From NCBI GenBank assembly GCA_017550315.1, contig JAFZPN010000058.1, forward strand, positions 4,793-68,792: a stretch of 64,000 nucleotides of DNA, read 5' to 3'. A model generated the notes under the pieces. That model did not search any database, had not been told where the DNA came from, and saw only the letters and a list, made by a program, of their open reading frames with translations. Source of the DNA: Clostridia bacterium (GTDB taxonomy: Bacteria; Bacillota; Clostridia; Oscillospirales; CAG-272). The translations under genes were made by a program, and so were the position numbers. Of the stretch, positions 4,659 to 57,966 are shown one piece after another. How positions within the stretch are numbered: the first letter of the stretch is position 1; each line of letters starts with the position of its first letter.

Positions 4659-4696
4659 TGAAGATAACGATAAAGCAAGAAGGAGGAGTAAAGAAC

Positions 4697-10987: not shown

Positions 10988-11171
10988 TTTCTTGTTTTCA
11001 CTTTCGGGGGGGTCCAAAACCTGCATCGGAGCGTCGTCCGGTGATCTATGGCCAATATAGCATAAAAAACCCGATTCGTCAAGACCTTTGCCGGAAATGG
11101 CGGAGGGGATGCCCGCTCTGTTTTTCTCCCGCCCCGAGACGAGAAAAAACGCAAAGGCAGGGGAATCGCTC

Positions 11172-15308: not shown

Positions 15309-15327
15309 AGCGGAGGAGGGAAGAATC

Positions 15328-15966: not shown

Positions 15967-15974
15967 GGCGCGGC

Positions 15975-16631: not shown

Positions 16632-16673
16632 CGCGCATGAACGTTTGCGGATCCAGCAGAAAGGGGGAGGAAG

Positions 16674-19401: not shown

Positions 19402-19449
19402 AAGATGCGCGCCGACGCCGCGGATGACATAGAATGGGAGGTGACGGTT

Positions 19450-22439: not shown

Positions 22440-22489
22440 TGGTTCAACGATTCGTTTACATTCGTTGAGAATTCTCATCGCAGCGGTTC

Positions 22490-22518
22490 TTTACAGTACG
22501 AGCGGTTTCTGCTATACT
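22490..22518 (+). promoter_or_regulatory. promoter of the first XRE regulator
   Basis: -35 TTTACA (22490-22495), 17-nt spacer, extended -10 TGcTATACT (22513-22518). A direct repeat ATTCGTT x2 lies at about 22450-22466 upstream. Confidence 0.55.
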
Positions 22519-22564
22519 GGCTGTGAAACAAGGCCTTGTTATCTCAACAGAAGGACGAAAACAA

Positions 22565-23350
22565 ATGAAAATTATCATCGCCCAACGGCTCAGAGATCTC
22601 CGCCGCAAGCGGGGAAATACACAGGAGGATCTTGCGCGGCATCTTGGTGTTTCGACACAAGCCGTGTCGAAATGGGAACGAAGCGAAGGATGGCCAGACC
22701 TTTCTTTGTTGCCTGCTATCGCGTCCTATTATGCGGTAACGGTCGACCATCTTCTCGGCGTGGATGCAGAGGAACGTCGTCGACGGGTCGAGCAGATTAC
22801 GGACAAGTATAACCAAATCCGTGCGCGCAAAAACGCAGACGGTCTTCCGGATGTCGGATTCCGTATCGAGGAGGGGATCGCTTTTCTTCGGGATGCCGTA
22901 CGGGAACTGCCGGATGAAGCATTCCTCGGTCAGATGCTGGCTTCCGATCTCTGGTGGTACGCGGAGAACCGCGCAGACAAGACGGAACGTCCCGCGCTGC
23001 TTCTTGAAGCGGAAGAAGCGTGCCGCCGGATTCTCTCGGACTGTAAGGAAGAACGATGGCGAAACTGCGCCAGACAAATACTCTGCCTCGTTCTCAACGC
23101 ACAGGGGGCGAAGGAGGACGCGAGAAGAATCGCTGCGGATATGCCGGACGCGACGGGGACGGATTTATTCATGCTGACCTACCTGCTCGAAGGAGAAGAA
23201 CTGAAAGATCATCTTCGTTTTGCGATCCGCCGGTTCCTGCAGACACTGTACCGCTGTTCCGAACGCTTGAACGAAGCCGGCGGAGAGTGCAAATTGGATG
23301 AGGAAGAACAGTCACAACTCAACGCGTTGACCAAAACCTTCATCGGCTAA
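22565..23350 (+). CDS. XRE-family HTH regulator with C-terminal all-helical (TPR-like) domain
   Basis: Start ATG 22565. HTH_3 motif LRRKRGNTQEDLARHLGVSTQAVSKWERSEGWPDLSLLPAIASYYAVTVDHLLG, followed by a helical domain of about 190 aa. Confidence 0.8.
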   Translation: MKIIIAQRLRDLRRKRGNTQEDLARHLGVSTQAVSKWERSEGWPDLSLLPAIASYYAVTVDHLLGVDAEERRRRVEQITDKYNQIRARKNADGLPDVGFRIEEGIAFLRDAVRELPDEAFLGQMLASDLWWYAENRADKTERPALLLEAEEACRRILSDCKEERWRNCARQILCLVLNAQGAKEDARRIAADMPDATGTDLFMLTYLLEGEELKDHLRFAIRRFLQTLYRCSERLNEAGGECKLDEEEQSQLNALTKTFIG

Positions 23351-23415
23351 CCGCAATCAAACACTTCCCGCTCGCGCGGCAGGGGGCGTGCGCTCCGGTG
23401 TGACCGGACAAAAAT

Positions 23416-23457
23416 CGGGCGACTGTATACGGCAGCCGCCCGGTTCTGTTTGATTTG
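23416..23457. terminator. bidirectional terminator between the convergent XRE genes
   Basis: Stem CGGGCGACTG / CAGCCGCCCG (1 mismatch). Followed by GTTCTGTTTGATTT on the + strand and ATTTTTGT on the - strand. Confidence 0.6.
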
Positions 23458-23492
23458 GATGTCTTCACGCGGGTTTCCGCTGATTGTCCGGC

Positions 23493-24248
23493 TCAGACGC
23501 CGAGTTTGTTGACGGCCGCTTCGACGGATGCGCGCGCGGCATCGAATGCACCGACCTCCTCTTCCGTCAGATGCGCGTGAACGGAGAACGCCCAAAGGTC
23601 CCACAGAAGCATGTTCAGGTCGTCGGAGATGCGTCCCCGGAGATGATTGACTTGGTCTTCTCCTTCGAGAGCCCAGTAGAGATTGCGCTCGCGGCAGGTT
23701 TCGATATCCGCCATCCCCTCCGCGATCTGCATGGCTTCCGCTTTTCGTTTCGTATCGCAGTAATGCCGGAACAGGAGGCGGCGGGATTCGTTCCGGCACC
23801 AGTTGTCCGTCGAATACTGGTGGATGCGGTACGCGATGGACACGATCTCCGCGTCGTATGCGCGGCACAGGTCTTCGTCCTCGCTCGCCGCATACAGCGC
23901 GTACATCAGACAGGTCAGAAGGCGGTCGTTGTTCGGATATTTGTTGAGCGCTTCGCGGAGCTTGATGATGGGACCTTCCGTAATCATGCGGTCGATCTGG
24001 TCCTCCGCTTCGGCAATGACGGCGGCGATTTCTTTCTGTTTGGCCGCGGCGTTCACGCCGAGCAGTTCGTCCACGGTGATTTCAAACAGGTCCGCGAGCA
24101 TCGGCAGGGCGGAGATGTCGGGCGAGGTGGCTGCCGTTTCCCAACGGCTTACCGCCTGCGGAGATACGCCCATATAGTCGGCAAGCTGCTCCTGCGTCAG
24201 GTCTTTTTGCTTGCGCAGGAGTTTCAGTCTTTCGCTGAGTGAGGTCAT
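23493..24248 (-). CDS. XRE-family HTH regulator with C-terminal helical domain (paralog of 22565-23350)
   Basis: Start ATG 24248 after GGAGGAAC. HTH LRKQKDLTQEQLADYMGVSPQAVSRWETAATSPDISALPMLADLFEITVDELLG. The C-terminal domain is collinear with that of the neighbouring regulator. Confidence 0.8.
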   Translation of the reverse strand: MTSLSERLKLLRKQKDLTQEQLADYMGVSPQAVSRWETAATSPDISALPMLADLFEITVDELLGVNAAAKQKEIAAVIAEAEDQIDRMITEGPIIKLREALNKYPNNDRLLTCLMYALYAASEDEDLCRAYDAEIVSIAYRIHQYSTDNWCRNESRRLLFRHYCDTKRKAEAMQIAEGMADIETCRERNLYWALEGEDQVNHLRGRISDDLNMLLWDLWAFSVHAHLTEEEVGAFDAARASVEAAVNKLGV

Positions 24249-24431
24249 GTTGTTCCTCCCAATCGAGAATGAAGTGTTTTGTGAGCTCACGGTCACAGTA
24301 TAGCAGACGGCTGGGGAAAATGCAAGCAATCATTTCGATTGTCCGCATCAACAAAACCGACGGAAAAGCGCCTGCGGGGATCGGGGGACGACGGAAGTTC
24401 GGGGCAGCGGCGTGAAATATCCGCTCGGCTC

Positions 24432-36639: not shown

Positions 36640-39600
36640 ATGAAAGCAGGAAAATGGCTGGCGGCGGTCCTTGTGTTCTGCATGCTGCTCAGCCTGACGA
36701 CGATGGGGGTTCTGGCGGGAGCGGAAACGGATCTTTCCGCCGCTGCGTCCGGATCTGCCCAGGAACAGGCCGGGGTCCGGGGACTTCAGGCGGGACGAGA
36801 AGGAAGCGCTTCTTTCTCTCTGATTTCTTCGGAGGATCCGATATCCATCACCGGGCCCGGCGTAACGCGTGTTTTCTGTACGCTCAACGAACTGACGCTC
36901 GGCCCGATCGGCACCGGCGGCAAGTCCATCGATGCGGCGAGCGTTCGGTTTGCGTTTTTTGCTTCTTATGAAGGCGCGGAATTGACCGACGGGAAAGGCC
37001 ACACCTTGTCGATATACGTCATGGAGAATTCCGAGCCGTGTATGACGGAGTGGATCGAGCATGACTTCGTCGAATCCGAAGTTCCGGGCGGCTTCACCGT
37101 ATCTGTTTATGTATATAAGAGCCACTGGGAAGCCTGCGAACCCGGGATCTATACGGGTCCCCTGGTCTACTGCGCCGTATGGACCTCTGCCGACGGCGAG
37201 AAGATCTATGAATACAGAAACCTGAACGTGTCCGCCAAGGTGACCGACCCGGATCAGGCGTTTTCCGTCACCGTCGAAGACACGGTCGGCGGGACCCTCA
37301 TCGCGGACAAAGCGTCTGCGAAAGCCGGCGAAACGGTCACGGTCACGGCGGCTCCGGCCGAAGGATATTCGTGCGGCGGCATTCAGGTCACGGGCGCCGA
37401 GGCGCAGAAGACTGAGGAGAATGTCTATACGTTTACCATGCCCGATTCGGATGTGACGGTGAGCGGTCAGTGGGGCATGAGCTGGGCGACTTTGCAGGCC
37501 CGGATCAACAGCGCGGCGGACGGCGAGACCATCGTGCTGTATGCCGACTGCACCGCCGCGGCGGGGGACACCGTTCTGACAGTCAGGAAGTCCCTCACCC
37601 TCGATCTCAACGGACATACGCTTGACCGCGGACTGACCAAGGCGGCGACGGGCGGCAATGCCATCAGCGTCACCGGTTCCGGGAAACTCAAAATCCGCGA
37701 CAGTGCCGGCGGCGGGACCATCACCGGGGCGTTCAACACCGGCAGCGGCGGCGCGATCACAAACAACGGAACGGTGACGATCGAAGGCGGAACGTTTACG
37801 GGAAACACCGCCAAGGAAGCCGGAGCCGTATATAACTCGTCCGGAGCCGTGCTGAACGTCAGGGGCGGCGAGTTTACCGGCAACAAAGTCACGACCTGGG
37901 GTGGCGGCGCGTTCGTGAACTACGGCACGATGACCATGTCCGACGGTACGATTTCGGGTAACAGCGTGCCCATGAACGGCGCCGGCATCTGGACCTCCGG
38001 GACGCTTACCCTCACGGGAGGACGGATCGAGGACAACATCCTCGAATCGGACACCGGCAACGGCGGCGGGATCTACTTCAAGGACGGCACGCTGAATATC
38101 TCCGGTAACCCCGTGGTCATCGACAACACGAAAAACGACTTGCACATGCTCTCCGGCAAAACCCTCACGGTGACGGGGGATCTCGACGCGTACATCGGCG
38201 TGAGCAAAGAGGGATCCCTGCCGAGAAAAATCACCAAGGGGCTTTCCGGAAAGGGAACGGACTACGATTTCTTCAGCAGCGACGACTCGCTCGGCGTTTT
38301 TATCGACAGCGACGGCGAGCTGATCGTCCGGAAATACCGGTTTGAAATCGACTCCGGCATCACCGGCGGCAAGGTGACGGCGGACAAGACCAATCCCCTG
38401 CCGGGCGACACCGTCCGTCTGAGCGTCGTTCCGAATGCGGGGATGAAGATCAAGACCGTTACCTGCATCACCGACGACTACTGGACCTACGAGCTGTATC
38501 CGGACGAACAGGGCAATTACAGCGTGGAAATGGTAAAGGGCGACGTCGTGATCAAGGCCGAGTTTCTGCCGGATGTCCACGAATATGACATCTGGCTGGG
38601 CGGGACGCAGGTCAGCGAAGCCAACAAGAACAATATCCTCGGCGCGAGCAAGGCCACGGCGGTCTACAATCCGGATACCCATACCCTGACCTTGGACAAA
38701 CCGGTCATCACCGGGGAGAACTACTATGGCGCCATGATCTTCGCGGAGGATCAGGATCTCGTGATCGTCGCCAAAAGCCCGCTGACGCTGAACAGCGGAT
38801 ACGATACGGCCATCCGCGTCCGCACCGGGAATCTGACCCTGAGAGGGACCATTACGGTTTCCTCCGATTATGATTCCGCGGTTTATGTCTCGTCCTACTA
38901 CGACGAGGGCGGAAATCTGACGGTCGAAGGCAATCTGACCGCCACATGCCTCAGTCAGTACGGCAGCGGTTATGCCGTGTATGCGGATCAGTCGATCAAG
39001 GTGACAGGGTCCGGCAAGGTAACGGCCAAAGGTTCGGATTACGGGATGTACTGCTACGACGGCGACGTCGAGCTGCTCGGTCAGAGCGTCACCGCGGAGG
39101 GCGGCGATGCCGGATTGTACGTTGGCGGCGACGCAACCGTCAACTGCAACGCTGCGTTCAAAGGCGGAGAAGACAGCGGGATCGAATGTGATAATCTCAC
39201 GATCCTCGGCGGAACGGTAACGGCCGAGGGCAGCGACGATCCCGGCATCAGCGCGGGCGGCAGCGTCACGATCTCCGGCGGGACCGTTACGGCCAAGAGC
39301 GTTTATGACCGCGGCCTGGAAGTATATGATGATCTCACGGTCACCGGCGGAACGGTGAAAGGAGAAAGCAACAAGTCCAGAGGCATCTATGTCGGGGAGA
39401 ACATGTACCTCTCCGGCGGCACCGTAACGGCAACAACCTCGGATGACGACGCCCTGATGGTATACGGCGATCTCACGGTCACCGGCGGTACTCTGACAGC
39501 CGCCGGCACGGAATGGGGCATATACGTAAACGGAAGTCTGGCGCTTTCTTCCGGCTTTACGCGGATTACGGGGAAAGGCTCCATGGACGGGGCGATCCGC

Positions 39601-41769
39601 GCGGAGGGAGGTATCGGCGGTCAGTTCCGGATCAGCGAACCGGCCGGCGCTTTCCTGAACGAAGAGGGGACAAGGATTATTACCGGATACAACGGAAGCG
39701 GAGACGAGATCCCCGCGACCCAGGCCGTACTTGTACCCGATTCCTCCTCCGAAGCGTATTGGCTCGTAAAGATCTCCGGCGTGGAAGGCGGCTTCGTAAG
39801 CGCGGACAAGTATTCCGTAAAGGCCGGCGCGAACATCACGCTGACTCCCGAGCCCAAGGATGGATACACCTTCATTACGTGGCAGGTGACCGACGGATCC
39901 GGAAAGACCGTGACCGTCTCGGACGACAGCTTCACCATGCCCGCCTCCGACGTGACGGTGAGGGCAATCTTCATGACCGGCGAAGTGTCCTATGTCGACG
40001 CCGACGGCAGGGAACAGACGCCCGTCACCGAATTCTCCGTGATAACGGGCGACATGAATTACTGGCGTTCCGGCTGGTATGTAGCCTTCGGCGACGCTGT
40101 CGTGGAGCGCTGCATCAACGTTGCAGGCAACGTCAACCTGATCCTCTGCGACGGCGCGGCTCTCACGTGCGAATGCATCTGGGTCAGCAACGACGCCAGT
40201 CTGACGATCTGGGCGCAGAGCACCGGTGAGAACGCCGGCAGACTGATCGCCGACAACAGCGATATGAACAACGGCACGTCCTGCGCGGGCATCGGCAGTC
40301 CCTACACCTCGGGTCCCGTCACGATCAACGGCGGCTTCATCACCGCGAAGGGCAGCTCCGGCTGCGCGGGCATCGGCGGCAATTACTCCGGGACGGGCTC
40401 CGTCACGATCAACGGCGGCACGGTGAATGCGGAAGGCGGCTCCAGCGCTGCGGGCATTGGCGGCGGAAGAGACGACGAGGAAGACCCGGTCGTCGTGATC
40501 ACCGGCGGGACCGTATACGCGGAAGGCGGCTTCCTGGGCGCGGGCATCGGCGGCGCCTACAGACACGGCGCCGGTTCCGTCACGATCAGCGGCGGCACGG
40601 TGAACGCGGTCGGCGGTTATGAGGCGGCAGGCATCGGCTGCGGAAACGGCGGGAGCGGCGGCACGCTCACGCTGGACTATGAATCCGTCGGTCCCACGAC
40701 ATGCGTTACCGCCAGCAGCTACGGCGGAACGGTAATACTGGCCAAAGCCTTCAAGGATGAGAACGGCGATCTCTATGCGGCGACATCTTCCGCGGACAAG
40801 TCGGCACTGAAGGGAAAGACCCTGACGCCCTCCGGTCCGATATTCAAGACCCAGTCCGTCATCCTCTCCGGCCAGATCGGCGTGAATTTCTTCCTGGATC
40901 TCTCTCCCCTGACGGAAGAGGAAAAGGCGGCGAGCTATGTGACCTTCGCGATCTCGGGCAAGGGCACGATCACCGAGCGGGATGATTTCGACGCCGACTT
41001 CATGAATACGACGGGCGACTATTACGGCTTCACCTGCTATGTGAACGCGATCCAGATGGCGGATACCATCACCGCCGTGTACCACTATGAGCAGGGCGGC
41101 AGTTCGTGCACCGCGGAAAAGACCTATGCAATCCGGGACTATTTTACCGGCTTTGACAGCGCGGTCGCTTCCGGGGCCATCCGGGACAAGACGACGATCG
41201 ATCTGGTCCATGCTTTCGCCGATTACGGCCACTATGTCCAGCCGTTCCTGTCCTCGGTGCGCGGCTGGAAGCTCGGCTCGGACTACGCGGCGCAGGATCG
41301 CTTCTACGCGATCTATTCCGACGCGGATATCCGGAGCGCCAGGGACGACGTGGCCTCCCGCGCCCTCGTGACGGACAACCGGACGGGCGGCGACATTGCG
41401 GAGATCACCCACTCCCTGACGCTGGACAGCAACACCGTGATCAACGTGTTCTTCCAGCCCGCGAATCGCTATGACGGCGTCTTCACGGCCTCCGTGGACG
41501 GCGGCGAAGCGGTTGCCTGCGAAAAAGGCGACGACGGGCGGTACTGCGTGAAGATCGAAGGCATCTCGGCGCATCTGCTGAGCGAGGACCATACGGTCAC
41601 CGTCACGACGGACAACGGCTCGGCGGACGTCACGGTCTCGGCGCTGTCCTACGTCAACTCCGCTTTGAATGCCTACACGGACAACAGCGAAGCGCTGAAC
41701 GCGGCCATGGCGATCTACCGCTATTCCAAAGCCGCGGACAGCTACAAGGCTGCCTATCCGGATGACTGA
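36640..41769 (+). CDS. 1709-aa secreted beta-helix repeat surface protein (Pmp-like GGAI repeats, three divergent InlB-B-repeat-like modules, AGIGG repeats); no recognizable wall anchor
   Basis: GGAGG RBS plus ATG 36640. Signal peptide MKAGKWLAAVLVFCMLLSLTTMGVLAGA. See the repeat features below. The in-frame extension upstream to 35956 overlaps the MATE gene and was discarded. Confidence 0.85.
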   Translation: MKAGKWLAAVLVFCMLLSLTTMGVLAGAETDLSAAASGSAQEQAGVRGLQAGREGSASFSLISSEDPISITGPGVTRVFCTLNELTLGPIGTGGKSIDAASVRFAFFASYEGAELTDGKGHTLSIYVMENSEPCMTEWIEHDFVESEVPGGFTVSVYVYKSHWEACEPGIYTGPLVYCAVWTSADGEKIYEYRNLNVSAKVTDPDQAFSVTVEDTVGGTLIADKASAKAGETVTVTAAPAEGYSCGGIQVTGAEAQKTEENVYTFTMPDSDVTVSGQWGMSWATLQARINSAADGETIVLYADCTAAAGDTVLTVRKSLTLDLNGHTLDRGLTKAATGGNAISVTGSGKLKIRDSAGGGTITGAFNTGSGGAITNNGTVTIEGGTFTGNTAKEAGAVYNSSGAVLNVRGGEFTGNKVTTWGGGAFVNYGTMTMSDGTISGNSVPMNGAGIWTSGTLTLTGGRIEDNILESDTGNGGGIYFKDGTLNISGNPVVIDNTKNDLHMLSGKTLTVTGDLDAYIGVSKEGSLPRKITKGLSGKGTDYDFFSSDDSLGVFIDSDGELIVRKYRFEIDSGITGGKVTADKTNPLPGDTVRLSVVPNAGMKIKTVTCITDDYWTYELYPDEQGNYSVEMVKGDVVIKAEFLPDVHEYDIWLGGTQVSEANKNNILGASKATAVYNPDTHTLTLDKPVITGENYYGAMIFAEDQDLVIVAKSPLTLNSGYDTAIRVRTGNLTLRGTITVSSDYDSAVYVSSYYDEGGNLTVEGNLTATCLSQYGSGYAVYADQSIKVTGSGKVTAKGSDYGMYCYDGDVELLGQSVTAEGGDAGLYVGGDATVNCNAAFKGGEDSGIECDNLTILGGTVTAEGSDDPGISAGGSVTISGGTVTAKSVYDRGLEVYDDLTVTGGTVKGESNKSRGIYVGENMYLSGGTVTATTSDDDALMVYGDLTVTGGTLTAAGTEWGIYVNGSLALSSGFTRITGKGSMDGAIRAEGGIGGQFRISEPAGAFLNEEGTRIITGYNGSGDEIPATQAVLVPDSSSEAYWLVKISGVEGGFVSADKYSVKAGANITLTPEPKDGYTFITWQVTDGSGKTVTVSDDSFTMPASDVTVRAIFMTGEVSYVDADGREQTPVTEFSVITGDMNYWRSGWYVAFGDAVVERCINVAGNVNLILCDGAALTCECIWVSNDASLTIWAQSTGENAGRLIADNSDMNNGTSCAGIGSPYTSGPVTINGGFITAKGSSGCAGIGGNYSGTGSVTINGGTVNAEGGSSAAGIGGGRDDEEDPVVVITGGTVYAEGGFLGAGIGGAYRHGAGSVTISGGTVNAVGGYEAAGIGCGNGGSGGTLTLDYESVGPTTCVTASSYGGTVILAKAFKDENGDLYAATSSADKSALKGKTLTPSGPIFKTQSVILSGQIGVNFFLDLSPLTEEEKAASYVTFAISGKGTITERDDFDADFMNTTGDYYGFTCYVNAIQMADTITAVYHYEQGGSSCTAEKTYAIRDYFTGFDSAVASGAIRDKTTIDLVHAFADYGHYVQPFLSSVRGWKLGSDYAAQDRFYAIYSDADIRSARDDVASRALVTDNRTGGDIAEITHSLTLDSNTVINVFFQPANRYDGVFTASVDGGEAVACEKGDDGRYCVKIEGISAHLLSEDHTVTVTTDNGSADVTVSALSYVNSALNAYTDNSEALNAAMAIYRYSKAADSYKAAYPDD
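37651..38125 (+). repeat. polymorphic-membrane-protein-like beta-helix repeats inside the giant gene
   Basis: Serial units of the type GGAITNNGTVTIEGGTFTGNTA / GGAFVNYGTMTMSDGTISGNS / GGGIYFKDGTLNISGNP. Confidence 0.7.
38780..39615 (+). repeat. beta-helix coil repeats of about 22-24 aa inside the giant gene
   Basis: More than 10 successive units such as GISAGGSVTISGGTVTAKS / GLEVYDDLTVTGGTVKGES / ALMVYGDLTVTGGTLTAAG. Confidence 0.7.
40271..40680 (+). repeat. AGIGG-type glycine-rich repeats inside the giant gene
   Basis: Five units: CAGIGS..VTINGGFITAKG / CAGIGGN..VTINGGTVNAEG / AAGIGGG..VITGGTVYAEG / GAGIGGA..VTISGGTVNAVG / AAGIGCG. Confidence 0.7.
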
Positions 41770-41792: not shown

Positions 41793-42599
41793 ATGATGAA
41801 AAAACTACTCGCATGGACTCTTGCTCTCGCGATGCTGTTCGTCTGCCTGAGCGCCGCCGTTTCCGCCGCCGGATTCACCGACGGGGACAGCATCGGCGAC
41901 CCGTACAAAACCGCCGTGGAGCAGATGACCGCCCTCGGCGTGCTGAACGGCTTCCCGGACGGGACCTTCCAGCCGAAGGGAACGCTCACGAGAGAACAGG
42001 GCGCGAAGATCATCGCGTATATGCGCCTCGGCAGCGACGTGAATGCGCTGACCTGCTCCGAAGCGCCGTTCGCCGAGGTGGAGGCCGACCGCTGGTCCGC
42101 GCCGTCGATCGCGTGGTGCGCGGATCGCGGGATCCTGCTCGGCTACGGCGACGGCACGTTCGGTCCGACGGATCCGCTGACGGGCGATCAGTTTGCGAAG
42201 ATGCTGCTCTGCGCGTTTTCGCTGGGCGATCCGGCGCGCTATGCGGGCATCGGCTGGTATGAGCGCGTCCGGGAAGACGCCGGGGCAGCGGGCCTCTATG
42301 CAGGCGACAGCACCATGGCCACCGATCGGGCGATCAGCCGCGAACAGGCCGCGCTCCTCGCCTGGAACGCGATCAAAGCCGCGGAAAAGGCCGCCGCGGA
42401 CAAGCTCGAAGCTGCCGGCCATGCCGGAAACACCGGAACTGCCGGAACATCCGGCACGGCGGGGGGCAGCGGGTATGACAGCGCCTCGCTTGCCTGGCTG
42501 AACTACCTGCTCAGCCAGCTCGCCGCCGGCAGTCAGACATCGGGGAACGGTTCTTCTTCCCACACCGGCGAGGACATCGAACTGCCGGATCTGCCGTAA
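41793..42599 (+). CDS. small S-layer-homology (3x SLH) protein with low-complexity C-terminal tail
   Basis: GAGAGG RBS and ATG 41793, 24 nt after the giant gene stop. Signal peptide ...LSAAVSAAG. Three SLH units (FTDGDSIGDPYKTAVEQMTALGVLNGFPDGTFQP; FAEVEADRWSAPSIAWCADRGILLGYGDGTFGP; a third, degenerate one). The Gly/Ser/Thr tail ends GEDIELPDLP. Confidence 0.85.
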   Translation: MMKKLLAWTLALAMLFVCLSAAVSAAGFTDGDSIGDPYKTAVEQMTALGVLNGFPDGTFQPKGTLTREQGAKIIAYMRLGSDVNALTCSEAPFAEVEADRWSAPSIAWCADRGILLGYGDGTFGPTDPLTGDQFAKMLLCAFSLGDPARYAGIGWYERVREDAGAAGLYAGDSTMATDRAISREQAALLAWNAIKAAEKAAADKLEAAGHAGNTGTAGTSGTAGGSGYDSASLAWLNYLLSQLAAGSQTSGNGSSSHTGEDIELPDLP

Positions 42600-42632
42600 A
42601 CATGCCATAACATCCCGAAAGGAGAAATCGAT

Positions 42633-42806
42633 ATGCCGAAGAAAGAAAAGAAGCTGACCCTCAAGGAAGAGCCGAAGAAGGAACTCAAGGCGGAGGACCT
42701 CGAGAAGGTCGCGGGCGGTACGGATCCCACGCCGGACCCGCAGCCGGAGGAGCCGAAGCCCGAGAAAAAGAAGAGCGGCGACATCACTCTGCCGGAGATT
42801 CCGTAA
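42633..42806 (+). CDS. 57-aa double-glycine-leader peptide precursor (not in the supplied ORF track)
   Basis: GGAG at 42621-42624, 8 nt before ATG 42633. Translation is MPKKEKKLTLKEEPKKELKAEDLEKVAGG / TDPTPDPQPEEPKPEKKKSGDITLPEIP. The leader fits the L(-12) acidic(-8) L(-7) V(-4) GG consensus. A strong terminator follows directly. Confidence 0.6.
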   Translation: MPKKEKKLTLKEEPKKELKAEDLEKVAGGTDPTPDPQPEEPKPEKKKSGDITLPEIP

Positions 42807-42828
42807 ACAAAACACCCAGTGATCAAAC

Positions 42829-42887
42829 AAACCCCGGATACGGCATGCAGGCTTCCGAGCCCTGACCGTATCCGGGGTTTTGTTGTG
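42829..42887 (+). terminator. strong rho-independent terminator ending the surface operon
   Basis: 15-bp perfect stem AAACCCCGGATACGG / CCGTATCCGGGGTTT followed by TGTTGTG. Confidence 0.8.
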
Positions 42888-47041: not shown

Positions 47042-47436
47042 GGGAAATAAACCTCCGTCAGCACCTTCCGGTGGATGCCTCCAGTATAGCAGAGATGACC
47101 TTAAAAAGAAAGGGGCAAAACGCTTAAGATTTCTTTAAGATTATTTTGCATTGGAAGCGCGGGAACGTCAAGCGGAAATAAGCGCCTCTTCCCCGGCTCC
47201 GCCCCAGACCGCGCCCCGGCCGCCCTGATCCGGCAAGGCCTCTCCGCTTTCGTTTGACTTCATCGAGATTTTTCGCGGGCGGTTTTTGGCCTGCTCCCCG
47301 CTATTCTATCACAGATTCCCCTTCCTGTCAACCTTGGCCGGACGGTCGTATTGTCGTGTCAAAAACGGTTCCCTGGATCAAAGCCGCGGATCGAGCCGGG
47401 AGGCAGGACAGCTTTCTGCATTTTTCGCACCGGCCC

Positions 47437-47465
47437 TTGTATTCCGTGTTTCCGTATGGTATAAT
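47437..47465 (+). promoter_or_regulatory. extended -10 promoter of the second SLH gene
   Basis: -35 TTGTAT (47437-47442), 17-nt spacer, TGGTATAAT (47457-47465). Confidence 0.6.
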
Positions 47466-47571
47466 GAAATATCAATTTTTGATGCGGATGCGGTTCTCCC
47501 GCCTCGGCAAGACTTCGACCGCGCGGATCCGGCAGGACAACGGCGCGCGGATCGCGGTAGGGGGACAAATC

Positions 47572-48545
47572 ATGAAAATAACGAAAAAAATACCCTGTCC
47601 GTTCTGCTCCTCTGCCTGGTTCTCGTTCTGACGGCGGTCCGGGCGGGGGCGGAATCCGGTTTCACCGTCGACGGGCAGCACCCCGGCATGGCGCTCGATC
47701 CCGGCGAGAACGGCGTGCGGGCGACCGTCCCCTTCACGGTGAAGGGAAAGCAATACCTCCTCAGGCTCATCGGCGAAGACGGCGCGCTCCTCTGGATCGG
47801 ACAGCAGGAGGGCGGCGGGCAGCTTGTCTTTGACGTCTCCTTTGTTCCCCTCCCGGAGCACGCGGCGAGTTTTGAGCTGATCCTCTCGAGCGACGCGGAG
47901 CGGTTCGCGCCCGTGGTCATTCCGCTGTCCTATGTCCCGGAATCCACGGTTTCCGATCCGGCGGACGACGGCTGTTCCCGGGATGCCTCCTGCATCCTGC
48001 GGCGTTTCTCCGATCTCGACCCGGCGGCATGGTATCACGACGGGATCCACGCGGTCCTGGAAGGCGGCATCATGAACGGCTACGAAGACGGCACCTTCCG
48101 CCCGGACAGCACAACCAGCCGCGCGATGATCGTCACGATGCTCTGGCGGATGGAAAGACAGCCGCAGGTCCGGTATGATCTGCGGTTCGCCGATGTCCCG
48201 GACGGGGCTTGGTATACGGAAGCCGTTCGATGGGCGGTGTCCGCCGGGATCGTCAGCGGGTACGACGCATCCTCCTTCGGCCCGAACGACGGCGTGACGC
48301 GGGAACAGCTCGCCGCGATCCTGTACCGGTATGCATCTTCCCGCGGGGATGTATCGTTTTCCGGGAAGGGGGATCCCCTCGACCGTTTCGGCGATGCCGG
48401 TCAGATCTCTCCGTGGGCGCTCGACGCCATGCGCTGGGCAGTCGGAAGAGGACTGATCAACGGGACGGGGGGCGGGAAGCTCTCGCCCCGGGACCATGCT
48501 TCCCGCGCGCAGGTCGCCGCGGTGCTTGCCAGATTCTCTTCATAG
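47572..48545 (+). pseudogene. SLH-domain surface protein whose start codon and signal-peptide N-region are out of frame with the body at an A7 tract (frameshift, phase variation or assembly error)
   Basis: AGGGGGA RBS plus ATG 47572 gives MKITKK, then the A7 run at 47584-47590. With 8 A the frame would read MKITKKNTLSVLLLCLVLVLTAVRAGAES and continue into the 47286-48545 frame. That frame carries three C-terminal SLH units (FSDLDPAAWYHDGIHAVLEGGIMNGYEDGTFRP; FADVPDGAWYTEAVRWAVSAGIVSGY; FGDAGQISPWALDAMRWAVGRGLINGT). Confidence 0.6.
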
Positions 48546-51241: not shown

Positions 51242-51526
51242 GATGTCCCCCGGTGAGAATGTCTTCGTGTTCGGCTGCTTCCGGAATCATTATAGCACAT
51301 CCGAAGTGGGAGTGCAACAGGTTTTTGCCGCTGAGGACGGATGTTCCGCATCCGCCCGCCGTGCCGAATCGCATTCCCTCGACCCTCATGCGGGCAGCGC
51401 GGGAATTTTTCAAAAAAAACAAACAGAAAATTCCGCGCGCGTTTACGTATATTTAAACCGAATCCGCCCGGAATATGGTATGATAATACAGGAATAAACT
51501 TTTTCGTATCAAATTCGGAGTATATC

Positions 51527-52642
51527 ATGAACCGTTCCGATCCGATGTCCGCGGTGATCCGGCCCTTCCGCACCCGGCTCGTCCTGTATGCGGCGATCCG
51601 CGCCCTCCTCACGGCGCTCACCGCGGGATGCTTCGCGTGGGGGGCAGCGGTCCTGATGGGCAAGATCCGGCAGACCGATGCGGGCTCCCTCCCGTGGACT
51701 GCCGCAGCCGCCGTCGCTGCAGCCGTCTTTTGCCTGGCGCTGATCGTGTTCTTCCCGAGCAGGAAGGAAACAGCCCGGCAGATCGACGCGCTCGGTTTGA
51801 AGGAGCGGGCGTCCACGATGCTCGCGCTGCGGAACGATCCGTCCGGGATCGCGTTTCTGCAGCGGAATGACGCCTTAAGAACGATCGACATGACCGGGAC
51901 GCGCGGCATGCGCACGGGGATCCGCCGGTTGTCCGTGATCCTCTTGCTCCTGGCGCTTCTGTTCGCCGCGGCATGCCGGCTTGTTCCCGCAGCGTGGTTT
52001 GCGCGGGCGGCCGATCCGCTCGACGAGGTGTGGGAACAGGTCCTCGAAATGCTCCGCGAAGAGGAAATCCGTCTCGAGGAGCGGGGCGAGGAGACGCTCG
52101 CCGGGGAGATGCAGGATCTGATCGAATCGCTCGAGGAGATGGACCGTGAAAACGTCCTGCGCGCGGTCGGGGAGATCAACGGAACGGAAGAGGCCGCGAA
52201 GGATGCTGCCCGGAATGGCGAGGCGGACCGCGGCGCGATGAAGGAAATGCTCGACGTCCTCGAAGAAGCCCGCCGCGCCCTGCTCGGGGAAGAGGAGGAA
52301 GAGGCGGCGGAAGAGGGCGAGGAAGGACAGATGCAGCCCGGCGGCGAGGGGGAAGAACGCATGCCCGGCATGGGCGAGGAAGGAGAGGACGGCATGCCGA
52401 TGCCGCAGGACGGGGAAGAGCGCGGCGATGAGAACGGCATGGGTCCCGGCAGCGGCGAACCGGGTATGGACGGCGTGTCCAGACAGACCGAGCCGGTCTA
52501 CGATCCGATCTCGGGATCGGTTCCCTACGGCGACGTCTTCTCGGCGTATTATTCGGAATATCTCCGCGATGCGGAGGACGGGGAGATCCCGTTTGAGGTA
52601 CAGGAGGCCGCGCGCGCGTATTTCGCCGGCCTGGATCAGTAA
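51527..52642 (+). CDS. membrane protein with long acidic Glu/Gly/Met-rich region, first gene of the MoxR operon
   Basis: Start ATG 51527. Three hydrophobic segments, then a coiled, highly acidic stretch (EEEEEAAEEGEEGQMQPGGEGEERMPGMGEEGEDGMPMPQDGEERGDENG). Confidence 0.6.
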   Translation: MNRSDPMSAVIRPFRTRLVLYAAIRALLTALTAGCFAWGAAVLMGKIRQTDAGSLPWTAAAAVAAAVFCLALIVFFPSRKETARQIDALGLKERASTMLALRNDPSGIAFLQRNDALRTIDMTGTRGMRTGIRRLSVILLLLALLFAAACRLVPAAWFARAADPLDEVWEQVLEMLREEEIRLEERGEETLAGEMQDLIESLEEMDRENVLRAVGEINGTEEAAKDAARNGEADRGAMKEMLDVLEEARRALLGEEEEEAAEEGEEGQMQPGGEGEERMPGMGEEGEDGMPMPQDGEERGDENGMGPGSGEPGMDGVSRQTEPVYDPISGSVPYGDVFSAYYSEYLRDAEDGEIPFEVQEAARAYFAGLDQ

Positions 52643-52670: not shown

Positions 52671-53684
52671 ATGAACAACACTCTCGAAATGAACGACCGG
52701 GTCGCGTTTTTCAGCGAGCGGTACGCTGCCGCGCGGGAACAGATCGCGCGGGACATCGTGGGACAGGAGGAGGTCATCGACGGCACGCTCATCGCCCTGA
52801 TCGCGGGGGGAAACGTGCTCCTCGAAGGCGTCCCGGGCGTCGGCAAGACCCGTCTTGTCCGCTCGGTGGGGAGAACGCTCGATCTGCTGTTCTCCCGGAT
52901 CCAGTTCACGCCGGACCTCATGCCCGCGGACGTGACCGGCACGAACATCATCGAAAAGGACGAAAAGGGCAACAACGTGCAGCGCTTCGTCGGCGGGCCG
53001 ATCTTCTCGAACATCATCCTCGCCGACGAGATCAACCGCGCGACGCCGAAGACCCAGTCCGCCCTGCTCGAAGCGATGCAGGAGCACCGCGTGACCGCCG
53101 GCGGACAGACGTGGATGCTGATGGAACCTTTCTTTGTCCTCGCGACACAGAATCCCATCGAGCAGGACGGCACCTACGCCCTCCCGGAAGCCCAGATGGA
53201 CCGCTTCATGTTCAAGCTCCTCATGACCTTCCCCTCGCCGGACGAACTCATGAAGATCGTATCGATCACACAGGAGACCGAACAGGAGCGCGCCGTGCAG
53301 GTGATGAACGGCGAAGAGCTTCTCGCGATGCGGGAGACGGCGAAGCAGATCCCCGTGATCGACGAAGTCCTGCGCTATGCGGTCCGGCTGGTCACGGCGA
53401 CGCATCCGGAGAGCCCCGAGGCGGCGGAAACGACCCGGCGCGAGATCCGGTTCGGCGCAAGCCCCCGCGCGGTGCAGGCCCTGATCACCGGCGGCAAGAT
53501 CCTCGCCCTGACCGAGGGCCGGTACAACGTCTCCTACGACGACATCAACGCGCTCGCCCTCCCCGTGCTCCGTCACCGCGTGAAGCTGACCTACGAGGCG
53601 CTGATGCAGAAGCGCACGCCGGATGACGTGATCCTTGCGCTGCTCGACGAGCTGAACGGCCGCAAGAAGACCCGCAGGGCGTGA
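52671..53684 (+). CDS. MoxR-family AAA+ ATPase
   Basis: AAGGAG RBS. Walker A GVPGVGKT and Walker B ILADEINRA. MoxR-typical FTPDLMPADVTG and NPIEQDGTYALPEAQMDRF. Confidence 0.9.
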   Translation: MNNTLEMNDRVAFFSERYAAAREQIARDIVGQEEVIDGTLIALIAGGNVLLEGVPGVGKTRLVRSVGRTLDLLFSRIQFTPDLMPADVTGTNIIEKDEKGNNVQRFVGGPIFSNIILADEINRATPKTQSALLEAMQEHRVTAGGQTWMLMEPFFVLATQNPIEQDGTYALPEAQMDRFMFKLLMTFPSPDELMKIVSITQETEQERAVQVMNGEELLAMRETAKQIPVIDEVLRYAVRLVTATHPESPEAAETTRREIRFGASPRAVQALITGGKILALTEGRYNVSYDDINALALPVLRHRVKLTYEALMQKRTPDDVILALLDELNGRKKTRRA

Positions 53685-53691
53685 GGGGAAC

Positions 53692-54594
53692 ATGGCAAAC
53701 CGACAACTGATTGACGACGGGACCGTCGCTCTGCTCGAGAGCCGCGATCTCAACATCCGCTCGCTCATGGCCGGGCTGTTCGGGGGAAACCGGCGGTCCG
53801 GGCACTTCGGCTCCTCCATGGAGTTTGCGGATTACCGCCCGTATACGCCGGGGGACGATCTGCGCCGCATCGACTGGAAGCTGTACGGGCGGCTCGATCA
53901 ATACTTCGTCAAGCTCTTCACCGACGAGCGGCGGCAGCATCACCGGATCTACATCGACGGTTCCGCCTCCATGGCATGGGGCGAGCCCGAAAAACACCTG
54001 ACCGCCCTGCGGCTGGCCGCTCTGATCGGTTATCTGGCGGTGAGCGGGACGGACCGGGTGACATGGTACGCCCTTGAGCGGACCGCCTGCCGGCGCGTGA
54101 CGGAGACGGTGTCCAACCGGGAGGCGTGGGTCCTCGGGCTCGAGCGGCTCGGCGAACTGCGCTGCGGCGGGGATACGCGGATGGATGTCTCCGTGATGCG
54201 CTGCACGGATCCGGGGTATCACGACGGGGTGAGCTTTTTGATCTCGGACTTTCTGACCGACCGGAACTGGAAGGGGGCCGTCGACTGGCTGCTCAGCCGG
54301 AAGCGGGAGGTCTGCCTGATCCAGGTCCTCTCGCCCGACGAGATCGGACCGGCGCTGAACGGCCGGCTGTTTTTGAACGATACGGAATCGGTCGGGGAAG
54401 ACGACGAGCGCAACCGCCGAATGGAGATCGGACGCGACCGGCTGCGCGCATACGCCGAGGCATTCCGCTGGCTCGAGGACGACATCCGGAGCTTCTGCGG
54501 CGCGCGCCGGGTGCGTTTTTTCATGACCTCCGCCGACGCGCCGATCAGCCGGATCCTGTATGACGGCGCGATCCGATCGGAGATGATGCAATGA
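53692..54594 (+). CDS. DUF58-family protein (MoxR partner)
   Basis: Hallmark motif GSSMEFADYRPYTPGDDLRRIDWKLYGR. Confidence 0.85.
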   Translation: MANRQLIDDGTVALLESRDLNIRSLMAGLFGGNRRSGHFGSSMEFADYRPYTPGDDLRRIDWKLYGRLDQYFVKLFTDERRQHHRIYIDGSASMAWGEPEKHLTALRLAALIGYLAVSGTDRVTWYALERTACRRVTETVSNREAWVLGLERLGELRCGGDTRMDVSVMRCTDPGYHDGVSFLISDFLTDRNWKGAVDWLLSRKREVCLIQVLSPDEIGPALNGRLFLNDTESVGEDDERNRRMEIGRDRLRAYAEAFRWLEDDIRSFCGARRVRFFMTSADAPISRILYDGAIRSEMMQ

Positions 54595-56402
54595 GTTTTC
54601 AGAATCCGCGGGGGCTGTGGCTGCTTCTCGGCATCCCGGTCCTCATCCTGATCTGGCTGATCCGCCAGCAGCACGAAAACCGGCGGGTATCGAGCAGCTA
54701 TATCTGGCGGCTCAGCGACCGCTTCCTGAAGCGGCGTCTCCCCCTCTCCCGCTTCCGCCGGTGGCTGGTCTTTCTGTTGCAGCTCCTCCTTGTGGCGGGC
54801 GGGGCTTTTCTTGCCGCGCGTCCGGTTCTGGATCACGGCGCGCAGGTAGATTATCTCATCATCCTCGACGCCTCCGCGAGCATGCAGACGAAGACGGAGG
54901 GGGGCGATACGCGCTACGAGACCGCCGTCGGGATGGTCCGCGCGCTGTCGAAAGAGGTTTCGGACGGACACACCATGAGCGTGGTCCTCGCCGGGGAGCA
55001 GGCGGAATACCTCCTCGCGGACGCGTCTTCCCGGCAGGAAGTTTTGTCCGCGCTGGACGCCTCCTCCTGCGGATGGGGCGGATGCGCGCTCTCCGGGGCG
55101 ATGACGCTCGCGCAGCTCTTTCTCTATGAGCACCCGGGCGCAGAAGTGATCCTCTATACCGATCAGACGGTGGAAGAAGCCGAAGAGATCACTGTGGTCC
55201 GGCTCGGCGGGGAGGAATGGAACGCCGCCCTGACGCGCTTTTCCGTGCAGCAGGACGGAGAGGGCGGCGCGGATCTGACGGCGGCCCTCACGAGTCATGG
55301 GCAGGACGCGCAGATCGCGGTCGGGCTCTACGTCGACGGGCGGCTCGCCGAGGTGGTCAACTATGCCTGCCGGGCGGATACCCCGGCACAGGTCCGGTTC
55401 CATGTCGACGATCTGAAGGCGGTGGCCTCCTTTGCGCTGGCCATCGATCCCGGCGACGCGCTCGCGGAGGACAACCGGATCGTCTATTTCCCGGAGAACG
55501 AACGCCCGTGCGACACGCTGCTCGTGACACAGACGCCGTTCTATCTGGAAACCGCGCTCGATGCGCTCGGCCGCGGGGAGGTCCGTCTTGCTGCCACAGA
55601 GACTGAGATTCTCCCGTCGGGATACGATCTCTGCGTGTTCGACGGGTTTGTCCCCGACACCTTCCCACAGGCCGGCGCGATCTTTCTCGTGAATCCGCCC
55701 GCCATGCCCGACGGCCTGACACTGCGCGGCGTATCGGAGGAGCCGGTCTCCCTCACGGCATCCGCCGCCGGAAGTGTCTTTCTCGACAAGCTGCTCGCGA
55801 ACATGACGCTCGGCGAGACCGTGGTCGCGAAGCACGCCGTGGTCGACGCGACCGACGACTGGACGACGGTCTGCTCCGCGGCGGGCGATCCGGTGCTCCT
55901 TGCCCGGAACCTGGAAAACGGCTGCGCGCTCGTCGTGCTGCTGTTCGATCTGCATGACGCCAACCTGCCGCTGCAGACGGATTTTCTGCATCTGTTGCGC
56001 AATGTCATGAACCTCGCGACGCCCTCCCTTCTGGAGCGGCGGATCCTGACCGTCGGAGAGACACAGACCGTGACCCTTCTGCCGAACGCCGCCCCGGTCG
56101 TCATCACCGCGCCGGACGGGACCGTCACCGAGATCGGTGAGGCGGGCGACACCAAGCTTGCCGTCTCTCTGCCGGGCGCTTATCCGCTCGTGACGGAGGA
56201 CGAGGAGGCAGGATTCTTCGCCGTGATCCCGGAAGAGGAGAGCGCGCCGGCACAGACCGCCTCCCTCACGCTGATCCGGGAGGAGAGCGACAGCAAAACC
56301 GCACCCGAGGAAGCCACGGAGGGCATCTGGCGCATCGCCGCCCTGATCCTTCTGGCGATCCTCTTGACCGAATGGGGGATTTATGTCTATGAACAGCATT
56401 GA
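54591..56402 (+). CDS. BatA-N-terminal-domain / VWA-like membrane protein
   Basis: ATGA overlap with DUF58. N-terminal double-TM aerotolerance-type segment (FQNPRGLWLLLGIPVLILIWLIRQQ). MIDAS-like ILDASASM. C-terminal TM. Confidence 0.7.
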   Translation: MSFQNPRGLWLLLGIPVLILIWLIRQQHENRRVSSSYIWRLSDRFLKRRLPLSRFRRWLVFLLQLLLVAGGAFLAARPVLDHGAQVDYLIILDASASMQTKTEGGDTRYETAVGMVRALSKEVSDGHTMSVVLAGEQAEYLLADASSRQEVLSALDASSCGWGGCALSGAMTLAQLFLYEHPGAEVILYTDQTVEEAEEITVVRLGGEEWNAALTRFSVQQDGEGGADLTAALTSHGQDAQIAVGLYVDGRLAEVVNYACRADTPAQVRFHVDDLKAVASFALAIDPGDALAEDNRIVYFPENERPCDTLLVTQTPFYLETALDALGRGEVRLAATETEILPSGYDLCVFDGFVPDTFPQAGAIFLVNPPAMPDGLTLRGVSEEPVSLTASAAGSVFLDKLLANMTLGETVVAKHAVVDATDDWTTVCSAAGDPVLLARNLENGCALVVLLFDLHDANLPLQTDFLHLLRNVMNLATPSLLERRILTVGETQTVTLLPNAAPVVITAPDGTVTEIGEAGDTKLAVSLPGAYPLVTEDEEAGFFAVIPEEESAPAQTASLTLIREESDSKTAPEEATEGIWRIAALILLAILLTEWGIYVYEQH

Positions 56403-57966
56403 ACTATCCTTTGAATCCCCCCTTCTGTTGCTGCTGTTGATCCCGGCGATCCTGTTGATCCTTCTTCCGTGGCTCGGAATCCCCCGGGAAATGCGCCGGG
56501 GGTTCCGCAAGATCGCGCCGCTTATCCTGCACGGCGTGCTCGCGCTCGTGCTGGTCTTCGTCGCCGCGGGATTCACGCTCTCGACTCCTGTTGCCCCGGA
56601 TAGGGCAGGAGAAGACGAGGCCGCAGACACGGAGCCGGAGGAAGAGAGCGGCGGATTCCTCCTCATCACGGACGACACGGCTGCGGCGGAACAACTCCGG
56701 GAATACCTTCCGGAGGACGCGCCGGCCGGGATCGTCACCGCCAGACGCGCGCCCACCGATCTTACGATCCTGTCGTCGTATGAGCGGATCGTCCTGCTCG
56801 GCGTGTCGGCTGCCGATCTGCCCGAGCGGCTGGCGGGTCAGCTCGCGCTCTATGTCGAACAGGGGGGATCCCTCCTGCTCTCCGCGAGCGATCACAGCTT
56901 TTCCCTCGGCGGTATGCGCGGGACCGCTTATGAAACGCTGCTCCCCGTGTCCTTCGACTACACCGCCGAGGAGGGGGACAGCATCGCCCTCATGATCGTG
57001 CTCGACTGCTCGAACAGCATGAGCGGCGCGGGCGGCTGGGGCTGGGGCACTGCGGAGAATCTGTCCATGGCGAAGCAGGGCGCGATCCGGAGCATCGAGA
57101 CGCTGACGGCGAACGATACGGTCGGCATCGTCTCCTTCAACAGCACCGCGACCCTCCAGTCCCCGCTCACCCCGGCGACGGACACGCAGAAGGCGACGCT
57201 TTCCCGCGTGATCTCCGCCCTCGGCACGTCCCGGGGAACCTATTACTGCGACGCGCTGGAACTCGCGTGGGAGGAGCTCGGACAGTCGGACGCCCCGGTG
57301 CGCCACGTGATCTTCCTCTCGGACGGCGAGCCGAGCGACTACGGCTATAACAACATCGTGCGGAACATGGCGGCGGACGGGATCACCGTTTCGACCATCG
57401 CGCTCGGGTATTCCTCCTCCGTCCTTTCGGGGATGGCCTCGGACGGCGGCGGACGGTATTACGCCGTGACGAGCGTTTCCGAGCTCCCGGACATCATGCT
57501 GAGCGAGACGGAAACCGTGCTCTCCGATCCCCTGATCGAGGAGGAGACGGCGGTCACGCTGCCCGACGGTCTGCCGACGGATCTCCCTCCGGTGGACGGA
57601 TACCTCGGCACGACGCTCAAGGAGACGGCGGAACTCTTGCTCCAGACGCCGGACGGCGACCCGATCCTCGCACGGTGGACGCTCGGGGAAGGGGAGGCGG
57701 ACGCGTTTGCGAGCGACCTCGCCCGGTGGACGGACGGCTGGCGGGAGAGCAATACCGGGCGGCGGATGCTCCGGCAGATCCTCGCGATGGGGATCTCCGC
57801 GCCGGTGGAAGAAGCGGAGGAGATCTCCTCCGACGCGCCGCCCGCGAAGAATCTGTACGACATGCTCCTGCCGCTCGCGCTTGTGCTTCTTCTCGTCCTG
57901 CTCGCCGACATCGCGATCCGCCGCCTCCGCTGGAAGGACATCGTGATGTTCTTCGGGAGAGGGTGA
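56383..57966 (+). CDS. VWA-domain membrane protein
   Basis: Overlaps the upstream gene by 20 nt. N-terminal TM pair. MIDAS IVLDCSNSMSG. C-terminal TM LLPLALVLLLVLLADIAI. Confidence 0.8.
   Translation: MSMNSIELSFESPLLLLLLIPAILLILLPWLGIPREMRRGFRKIAPLILHGVLALVLVFVAAGFTLSTPVAPDRAGEDEAADTEPEEESGGFLLITDDTAAAEQLREYLPEDAPAGIVTARRAPTDLTILSSYERIVLLGVSAADLPERLAGQLALYVEQGGSLLLSASDHSFSLGGMRGTAYETLLPVSFDYTAEEGDSIALMIVLDCSNSMSGAGGWGWGTAENLSMAKQGAIRSIETLTANDTVGIVSFNSTATLQSPLTPATDTQKATLSRVISALGTSRGTYYCDALELAWEELGQSDAPVRHVIFLSDGEPSDYGYNNIVRNMAADGITVSTIALGYSSSVLSGMASDGGGRYYAVTSVSELPDIMLSETETVLSDPLIEEETAVTLPDGLPTDLPPVDGYLGTTLKETAELLLQTPDGDPILARWTLGEGEADAFASDLARWTDGWRESNTGRRMLRQILAMGISAPVEEAEEISSDAPPAKNLYDMLLPLALVLLLVLLADIAIRRLRWKDIVMFFGRG

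Follow-up and report, generated by a model that had tools for sequence, protein, structure and literature searches.

What could a gene of 57 codons contribute at the end of an operon for cell-surface proteins? The window analyzed here is the whole stretch of 64,000 nucleotides (64 kb), with a G+C content of ~61%. On its forward strand it carries the genes of a giant secreted protein and of an SLH cell-wall anchor protein, followed by a small reading frame and a hairpin. The questions raised by this arrangement are whether the frame is a gene, whether its product leaves the cell, and what the product might do there. The features concerned are as follows.

36640..41769, + strand: giant secreted beta-helix/InlB-B-repeat protein, 1709 aa (Pfam matches to Flg_new_2 and Beta_helix_3 only)
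40780-41766, + strand: conserved C-terminal (CT) domain of the giant protein, ~300-330 aa, assigned by homology
41793..42599, + strand: SLH cell-wall anchor protein with an N-terminal signal peptide and a low-complexity tail (Pfam SLH, E = 2.6e-23)
42567-42596, + strand: C-terminal tag of the SLH protein, GEDIELPDLP, read from the sequence
42621..42624, + strand: ribosome-binding site (RBS) GGAG, 8 nt ahead of the ATG
42633..42806, + strand: small-peptide gene of 57 codons (stop codon counted), product MPKKEKKLTLKEEPKKELKAEDLEKVAGGTDPTPDPQPEEPKPEKKKSGDITLPEIP
42633..42719, + strand: predicted double-glycine-type leader, residues 1-29, ending in LEKVAGG (sub-threshold HMM matches in register)
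42720..42776, + strand: variable acidic Pro-rich linker TDPTPDPQPEEPKPEKKKS (in-frame indels among homologues; disordered in an AF2 model of low confidence)
42777..42803, + strand: C-terminal tag GDITLPEIP-COOH, where conservation within the family is highest
42829..42887, + strand: hairpin (15-bp arms, 22-nt loop) and T-tract, likely the intrinsic terminator of the operon

The small gene and its signals

The preliminary description had taken this frame for an unannotated gene, which comparison with relatives bears out. A search of 5.8 billion proteins gave 7 relatives besides the window's own protein, and 2 further ones (P0010 and P0011) came from 1.84 billion cluster representatives searched with a profile. 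A protein-guided scan of the GTDB species-representative genomes with the family alignment produced 440 pattern matches, 0 of which were confirmed by tblastn. The 10 homologues, of 56-98 aa, come from gut and rumen metagenomes. Their frame is kept, with indels of whole codons only, and the pairwise dN/dS of the family is 0.22-0.62. Three motifs are retained family-wide, MPKKEK, (E/D)(D/N)LEKVxGG, and GDI(T/V)LPE(I/T)P, and these invariant motifs carry synonymous codon changes. The middle region differs in sequence and in length, always by entire codons. Cys is absent from the family except in P0010 (L013:1428-1619), whose linker contains two (...GCPKCNQ...).

The signals around the gene agree with translation from this frame and with the positions given for them at the outset. 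The stop codon of the SLH gene lies at 42599, which leaves a gap of 33 nt, and the coordinates confirm the GGAG motif at its spacing of 8 nt. AGGAG at equal spacing is kept in five related loci (L007, L008, L010, L011, and L012) despite their diverged flanks. The terminator that had been proposed directly behind the gene has exact arms, with 15 bp perfectly paired between 42829-42843 and 42866-42880, and a downstream run TTTTGTTGTG. Its fold energy beats 200 of 200 shuffles (z = -3.9). The loop exceeds textbook terminator size, and a simple terminator scan missed the hairpin because of that length. Behind the small ORFs of L013, L014, L026, and L068 there are likewise GC-rich inverted repeats with a T-run, identified by eye and not folded. 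Judged by its conservation and its signals, 42633-42806 is a genuine conserved coding gene and the last cistron before the hairpin.

Expression, which had been named as a means of checking the gene, received partial support. One 179-nt contig of a bovine gut metatranscriptome spans 42646-42824 at 98% identity, and none covers the SLH gene. This suggests that the small gene is transcribed, as far as one short contig from one metatranscriptome with possible DNA carry-over can indicate. A second RNA search with the whole operon returned no further runs. The DNA of the window is present in bovine, goat, and other gut metagenome sequencing runs. The gene lies under annotation cutoffs yet is conserved in uncultured ruminant-gut Clostridia.

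A GG-like leader and predicted export

The N-terminal 29 residues had been called a canonical double-glycine leader. The residue pattern stands: counted back from the cleavage site, V occupies -4, L -7, D -8, and L -12, with GG at -2/-1, as is found in substrates of the peptidase-containing ABC transporters (PCATs). LEKVxGG is invariant in 8 of 8 aligned family members, and the adjoining residues vary. Aligned to four independent GG-leader models, the peptide has its GG in register each time, with scores that stay under the curated cutoffs: TIGR04149 with 18.5 bits against 25 (E = 0.0014), the NHLP leader model with 14.7 bits against 50.9, the cerein 7B model with 12.6 bits against 21.5, and the ComC model with 12.5 bits against 20.4. 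The word "canonical" is therefore too strong, since every HMM match falls under its cutoff and the window contains no PCAT. In the search of 1.84 billion proteins, the family profile also matched unrelated GG-leader precursors (P0013, P0015-P0017, and P0019) through its positions 8-36. By its residue pattern and these alignments, the leader is GG-like.

No segment of the peptide is hydrophobic, and hence it has no Sec signal. An AF2 model of the whole peptide is of low confidence and mostly disordered, with a single short helix at residues 20-26. Given a GG-type leader and no Sec signal, cleavage after Gly29 and export by a C39-peptidase ABC exporter encoded outside the 64-kb window are most likely. 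Pfam scans found no Peptidase_C39 domain or PCAT among the ORFs of the window, in agreement with the preliminary description, which had also listed modification enzymes and immunity genes as missing there; related contigs contained no PCAT either. The ABC genes of the window are of the MacB/FtsX type, with several MacB-type FtsX permease and ABC ATPase genes at 13.7-22.4 kb, in the region 13698-24329.

The predicted leaderless core is the 28-mer TDPTPDPQPEEPKPEKKKSGDITLPEIP. It was described as acidic, Cys-free, and rich in Pro, and the count is 8 Pro in 28 residues (29%), 7 acidic against 4 basic residues, a net charge of -3, and 0 Cys; the peptide also has no Tyr and no Trp. A bacteriocin or microcin-like antimicrobial exported via its double-glycine leader would fit the leader, since class II bacteriocins and microcins classically leave the cell by means of one. 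Such a role is nevertheless highly improbable for a core of this charge and Pro content that is predicted to be disordered and has no amphipathic or hydrophobic segment. The features of class II bacteriocin or lanthipeptide cores are missing, as the first description had also concluded. Neither an immunity, a modification, nor an exporter gene lies nearby, and the conserved part of the core is a tag common to the producer's own surface proteins.

A nonapeptide shared by the small peptide and the SLH protein

From composition alone, the core had been thought to fit a signaling or surface-modulating peptide. Surface modulation remains the best guess; what that reading overlooked is that the core is more than its composition, for it ends in the tag GDITLPEIP. 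In eight aligned family members, 8 of the 9 tag residues are invariant, with synonymous codon changes beneath them. The small peptide ends in ...SGDITLPEIP-stop, which is the exact form that defines a tag carrier, and the SLH protein encoded just upstream ends in ...HTGEDIELPDLP-stop. Across all six frames of the window, LP[DE]xP-stop occurs in these two adjacent genes only. A second SLH protein (47286-48545, + strand), with three SLH repeats at its C-terminal end, is without the tag, which is therefore not general among the SLH proteins of this genome.

In the metagenome of run X1, which contains the window sequence, a separate contig of 1339 nt matches only the 35 tag-coding nt (window 42772-42806). 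Other tag-bearing genes therefore occur in the same community, possibly in the same genome.

Carriers of the tag elsewhere

Blind DNA-pattern scans of public genomes and metagenomes for DIxLP(D/E)xP-stop revealed ~20 further stop-terminated ORFs ending in ...(N/S/G)GDIxLPE(I/L/V)P. Chance matches in these scans consisted of short frames or non-stop TGG codons. The consensus of 27 carriers is G-D-I-x-L-P-E/D-[LIV]-P, with Gly at -9 in 22 of the 27 and N, S, or G at -10. Neither of these two positions was part of the search pattern, and for this reason we regard the motif as real. The tag ORFs from named genomes all belong to Clostridia or Erysipelotrichaceae MAGs, many of them ruminant. Pfam and NCBIfam hold no model that covers the tag, and a literature search with the tag strings found no relevant mention; the GDIxLP(E/D)xP-COOH family appears to be undescribed.

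The tag is preceded by long low-complexity linkers rich in acidic residues, Pro, Thr, or Ser. Seven carriers are SLH proteins homologous to that of the window (L012, L013, L045, L048, L055, L072, and L082), lipoprotein signals are found on L024 and L035, and N-terminal transmembrane anchors on L027 and L037. Because the full-length carriers examined have a signal peptide, a lipobox, or a transmembrane segment and then a low-complexity linker, the tag would be extracytoplasmic and on a flexible tether. A sortase-type sorting signal was considered and rejected, as the tag comprises the last nine residues with no hydrophobic tail after it. In one carrier, the segment before the tag (DADGDGKINILDVVRLRQYI, L056:1161-1178) resembles a dockerin Ca-binding repeat, which hints at an overlap with cellulosome-type proteins.

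The order in which a tagged upstream protein precedes a tagged GG-leader peptide was seen again in four loci. The SLH protein ends in ...GEDIELPDLP in a near-identical strain (L007) and in ...TGDDITLPDLP in L012, each followed by the peptide. In L013, a giant protein precedes an SLH protein ending in ...SSGDDITLPELP, a peptide ending in ...GGDIVLPEIP, and a likely terminator. In L014, the upstream protein is known only as a 59-aa fragment ending in ...GEGEDIELPDLP. The conservation expected of the gene in relatives is thus found, including the pairing with an SLH gene in L007, L012, and L013, but L010 and L011 carry the small gene by itself, with unrelated genes on both sides. In L008, the peptide directly follows the giant protein, with a convergent gene downstream. 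The SNF transporter downstream in the window was rejected as a conserved partner, since a 5'-nucleotidase-like secreted protein is found in L010 and L011 and the convergent gene in L008.

The layout of the peptide, in which a variable linker connects an export signal to an invariant oligopeptide at the C-terminus, would also suit a pheromone precursor; the tag or the whole 28-mer would act as a quorum-sensing signal, either through a histidine kinase or, after import, through an RRNPP-type regulator. GG-leader pheromones (ComC) are known and Pfam ComC matches weakly, the terminal Pro would be expected to shield the peptide from carboxypeptidases, and the window encodes two convergent XRE-HTH proteins of ~275 aa at 22.5-24.3 kb (22523-23350, + strand; 23493-24329, - strand) whose size resembles that of RRNPP/Rgg-type regulators. 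These XRE genes are, however, 19 kb away and unlinked to the small gene in relatives, and in 8 contexts no receptor, two-component system, or PCAT adjoins it. A tag that is permanently present on wall- or membrane-anchored proteins is also hard to square with a diffusible signal. We consider a pheromone unlikely.

The distribution of the tag also bears on whether the peptide is exported at all. A cytoplasmic disordered small protein, or an ORF kept by an overlapping RNA element, would account for the peptide being Lys/Glu-rich and of low complexity, and the GG would then be coincidental; the GG-leader HMM scores under cutoff and the failure to find an exporter point the same way. With codon-level purifying selection and synonymous changes within invariant motifs, with LEKVxGG invariant in all members while its neighbors vary, and with the other tag carriers being only extracytoplasmic proteins or exported RiPP-type precursors, a non-exported product seems very unlikely.

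Tag genes beside clusters for linear polyphosphorylated peptides

In eight loci (L026, L037, L048, L055, L058, L062, L072, and L082(-85)), lppK comes directly after a tag gene, and in some of them the two genes abut. The cassette that follows the tag gene encodes an HprK-like protein (Pfam ScmC), a PqqD-type RiPP recognition element (RRE), an S24/S26-like peptidase, and an MsbA-type ABC exporter without C39; some cassettes add an NTP_transf_5 protein. A search from the cassette side led to the order giant protein, 33-41 aa ORF, SLH protein ending in ...NDDGDIFLPEVP, and cassette. A literature search on ScmC/SynChlorMet found nothing relevant. By gene content and precursor motif, the cassette is a cluster for linear polyphosphorylated peptide (LPP) RiPPs, with LppK/B/S/D/N.

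The LPP system LppA/K/B/S/D/N was reported by Popov et al. (Nat Commun 2026; PMC13381572). The LppA leader contains the motif YxxPxVLxHQxIxFETxxS, which the RRE LppB recognizes and LppS cleaves, and LppK polyphosphorylates Ser3; the biological role of LPPs was stated as unknown (PMC13381572). That work covers Bacilli and capsule loci, with no mention of SLH proteins, Clostridia, or a C-terminal tag (PMC13381572).

Small ORFs of the cassette loci match the LppA leader, for example MEKYETLEMEVIVFYNEDVITTSG... A regular expression recovered LppA-like small ORFs in L026, L055, L068, L069, L079 (which duplicates L078), and L082-85, and not in the window; a small ORF of L080 fits the motif by eye. 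Two LppA-like cores contain the tag or a tag-like motif, ending in ...SKGDIILPELP in L026 and in ...GGDVELPEEPIGG in L068. The former belongs to a 39-aa hybrid ORF (L026:3068-3187, - strand; MKNAYENAEMEIIFFTNAEGIVTDVIVTSKGDIILPELP), an LppA-type leader joined to a GDIxLPExP tag, between a giant protein gene and lppK.

Two further arrangements were observed. In L068 (8639-8665; also in L069), an isolated in-frame DIILPEIP-stop lies in the intergenic region, just behind the likely terminator of an LppA-like ORF and ahead of the following gene for a secreted protein; it resembles the 3' remnant of a tag gene since lost. In L078 (1-11148), LppK-B-S without the exporter LppD directly precedes a Tad/Flp pilus operon (TadZ, T2SSE, T2SSF, and a Flp1-like pilin), and the LppA-like ORF ends in ...VIIDDGD, untagged.

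This neighborhood raises the question of whether the tag is a RiPP-type substrate, recognized or modified before export by LppK/B/S/N or by enzymes encoded elsewhere. Its position directly upstream of lppK in eight loci, its occurrence in two LppA-like precursors, and the match of the cassette to the published LPP cluster (PMC13381572) would all agree with such a role. The peptide of the window, however, has no LppA leader motif, no FET-like site, and no adjoining lpp genes, and tblastn with the L037 and L026 cassette proteins found no homolog of LppK, LppB, or LppS in the 64-kb window. LppK phosphorylates Ser, and no Ser is conserved in the tag; the full-length carriers examined would be poor substrates for cytoplasmic enzymes because of their Sec or lipoprotein signals. 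We find it improbable that the tag serves as such a substrate. A lasso-like macrolactam (Gly1 to Glu7) and a head-to-tail cyclization of the released nonapeptide were considered as well and set aside, for there is no cyclase and no observation favors either. One nonapeptide that occurs on tethered proteins and on peptides of two unrelated leader systems is better explained as an extracellular ligand than as a toxin.

The giant protein and a possible docking role

The giant protein at the head of the operon has no recognizable wall anchor in Pfam. Its conserved CT domain has 79 homologues, which stand behind varied N-terminal modules (CnaB, cohesin, and InlB repeats), and it adjoins tag genes in 8 lineages (the window, L008, L013, L026, L037, L062, L068/L069, and L082). 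AF2 modeled the domain with a pLDDT of 92 as two beta-sandwiches and helices. Foldseek against the PDB returned only weak, generic tandem Ig-like matches (TM ~0.2), which therefore give no functional clue, and the model revealed neither a peptide-binding site nor a cohesin fold. A sequence search of the PDB with the CT domain and the LppK-like and LppS-like proteins gave nothing useful. The association has exceptions on both sides. Neither a giant protein nor a CT domain appears in the visible part of four tag loci (L024, L027, L036, and L072), and L078 encodes a giant protein with a CT-like C-terminal sequence and no tag gene nearby. The latter escaped tblastn because only 58 aa of the sequence are present.

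We tentatively favor the explanation that the exported GG-leader peptide is a soluble copy of a surface docking tag, with the CT domain as a candidate partner. The operon encodes, in order, a giant anchorless adhesin-like protein, an SLH wall anchor, and the small peptide. A PCAT encoded elsewhere would cut the leader after Gly29 and export the peptide, and the released 28-mer would be a disordered, acidic, Pro-rich linker ending in GDITLPEIP-COOH. The tag itself might be an extracellular docking ligand, carried by SLH-, lipid-, and membrane-anchored proteins at the end of flexible tethers. Anchored tags would keep their partner on the cell surface; for this partner, the CT domain of the giant protein encoded alongside is the strongest candidate. 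Once secreted, the peptide may occupy the same site or compete for it with the anchored tags, and a soluble ligand copy of this kind would modulate surface attachment and not kill cells.

A wider version of this proposal is possible and rather more doubtful. The tag would be an unrecognized docking tag of gut Clostridia, whose anchored copies hold giant adhesins via the CT domain and whose free copies, made by the GG or the LPP route, cap or release them. If this is true, the LPP RiPP family and the peptide of the window gain a role in cell-surface remodeling, and free peptides could regulate adhesion or biofilm architecture in the rumen. The tag links SLH and lipoprotein anchors, anchorless giant adhesin-like proteins, and small exported peptides (including LPP RiPPs), which were previously unconnected. 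From it follow a hypothesis on what LPPs do that can be tested directly and a simple rule, at sequence level, for finding further carriers.

Other features of the window

Elsewhere in the window, a 1260-aa protein (7244-11026, - strand) has an unusual mix of a CotH kinase domain, RCC1 repeats, and chitobiase/Fn3-associated domains. An operon at 52671-57966 (+ strand) encodes a MoxR AAA ATPase, a DUF58 protein, a BatA/VWA protein, and a VWA protein, and resembles an aerotolerance-type Bat cluster. Three ORFs with good coding signal (4418-6187, 16674-18113, and 51341-52642, all + strand; 589, 479, and 433 aa) have no Pfam match at E < 1e-5.

Comparison with known systems

PCAT substrates (ComC/BlpC, class II bacteriocins, class II microcins, and NHLP/Nif11) share with the peptide of the window a GG leader of ~29 residues and the lack of a Sec signal. 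The peptide differs from them in scoring under the model cutoffs, in having no PCAT, immunity gene, or two-component system nearby, and in its acidic, Pro-rich, disordered cargo, whose conserved part is a C-terminal tag common to surface proteins.

The precursors of PapR, Phr, and NprX carry an export signal and, behind a variable spacer, a conserved and active C-terminal oligopeptide. Such RRNPP precursors use Sec signals and are encoded beside their receptor gene, whereas the peptide of the window has no linked receptor and its tag is also present on anchored proteins.

In relatives, the homologous SLH-tag gene directly precedes lppK-B-S-D(-N) of the LPP system, and some LppA-like cores end in the tag. 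LPP cores, like the peptide of the window, are short, acidic, exported (in our case by prediction), of unknown function, and encoded in cell-surface loci. The peptide of the window is set apart by its GG-type leader and by a window without Lpp genes.

Sortase LPXTG signals are, like the tag, short conserved C-terminal motifs containing LP on surface proteins. The tag is in contrast the very C-terminus, with no hydrophobic helix, charged tail, or Thr-Gly scissile site.

The proposed arrangement resembles, by analogy, the SLH anchoring scaffoldins of the cohesin-dockerin system, in that an SLH anchor gene adjoins that of a very large anchorless secreted protein and a short C-terminal connector is proposed. 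A dockerin is a Ca-binding module of ~70 aa, whereas the module of the window is a linear tag of 9 residues, and the CT domain showed no cohesin fold. Should the tag prove to be a docking ligand, cohesin-dockerin anchoring would have a minimal counterpart based on a short peptide.
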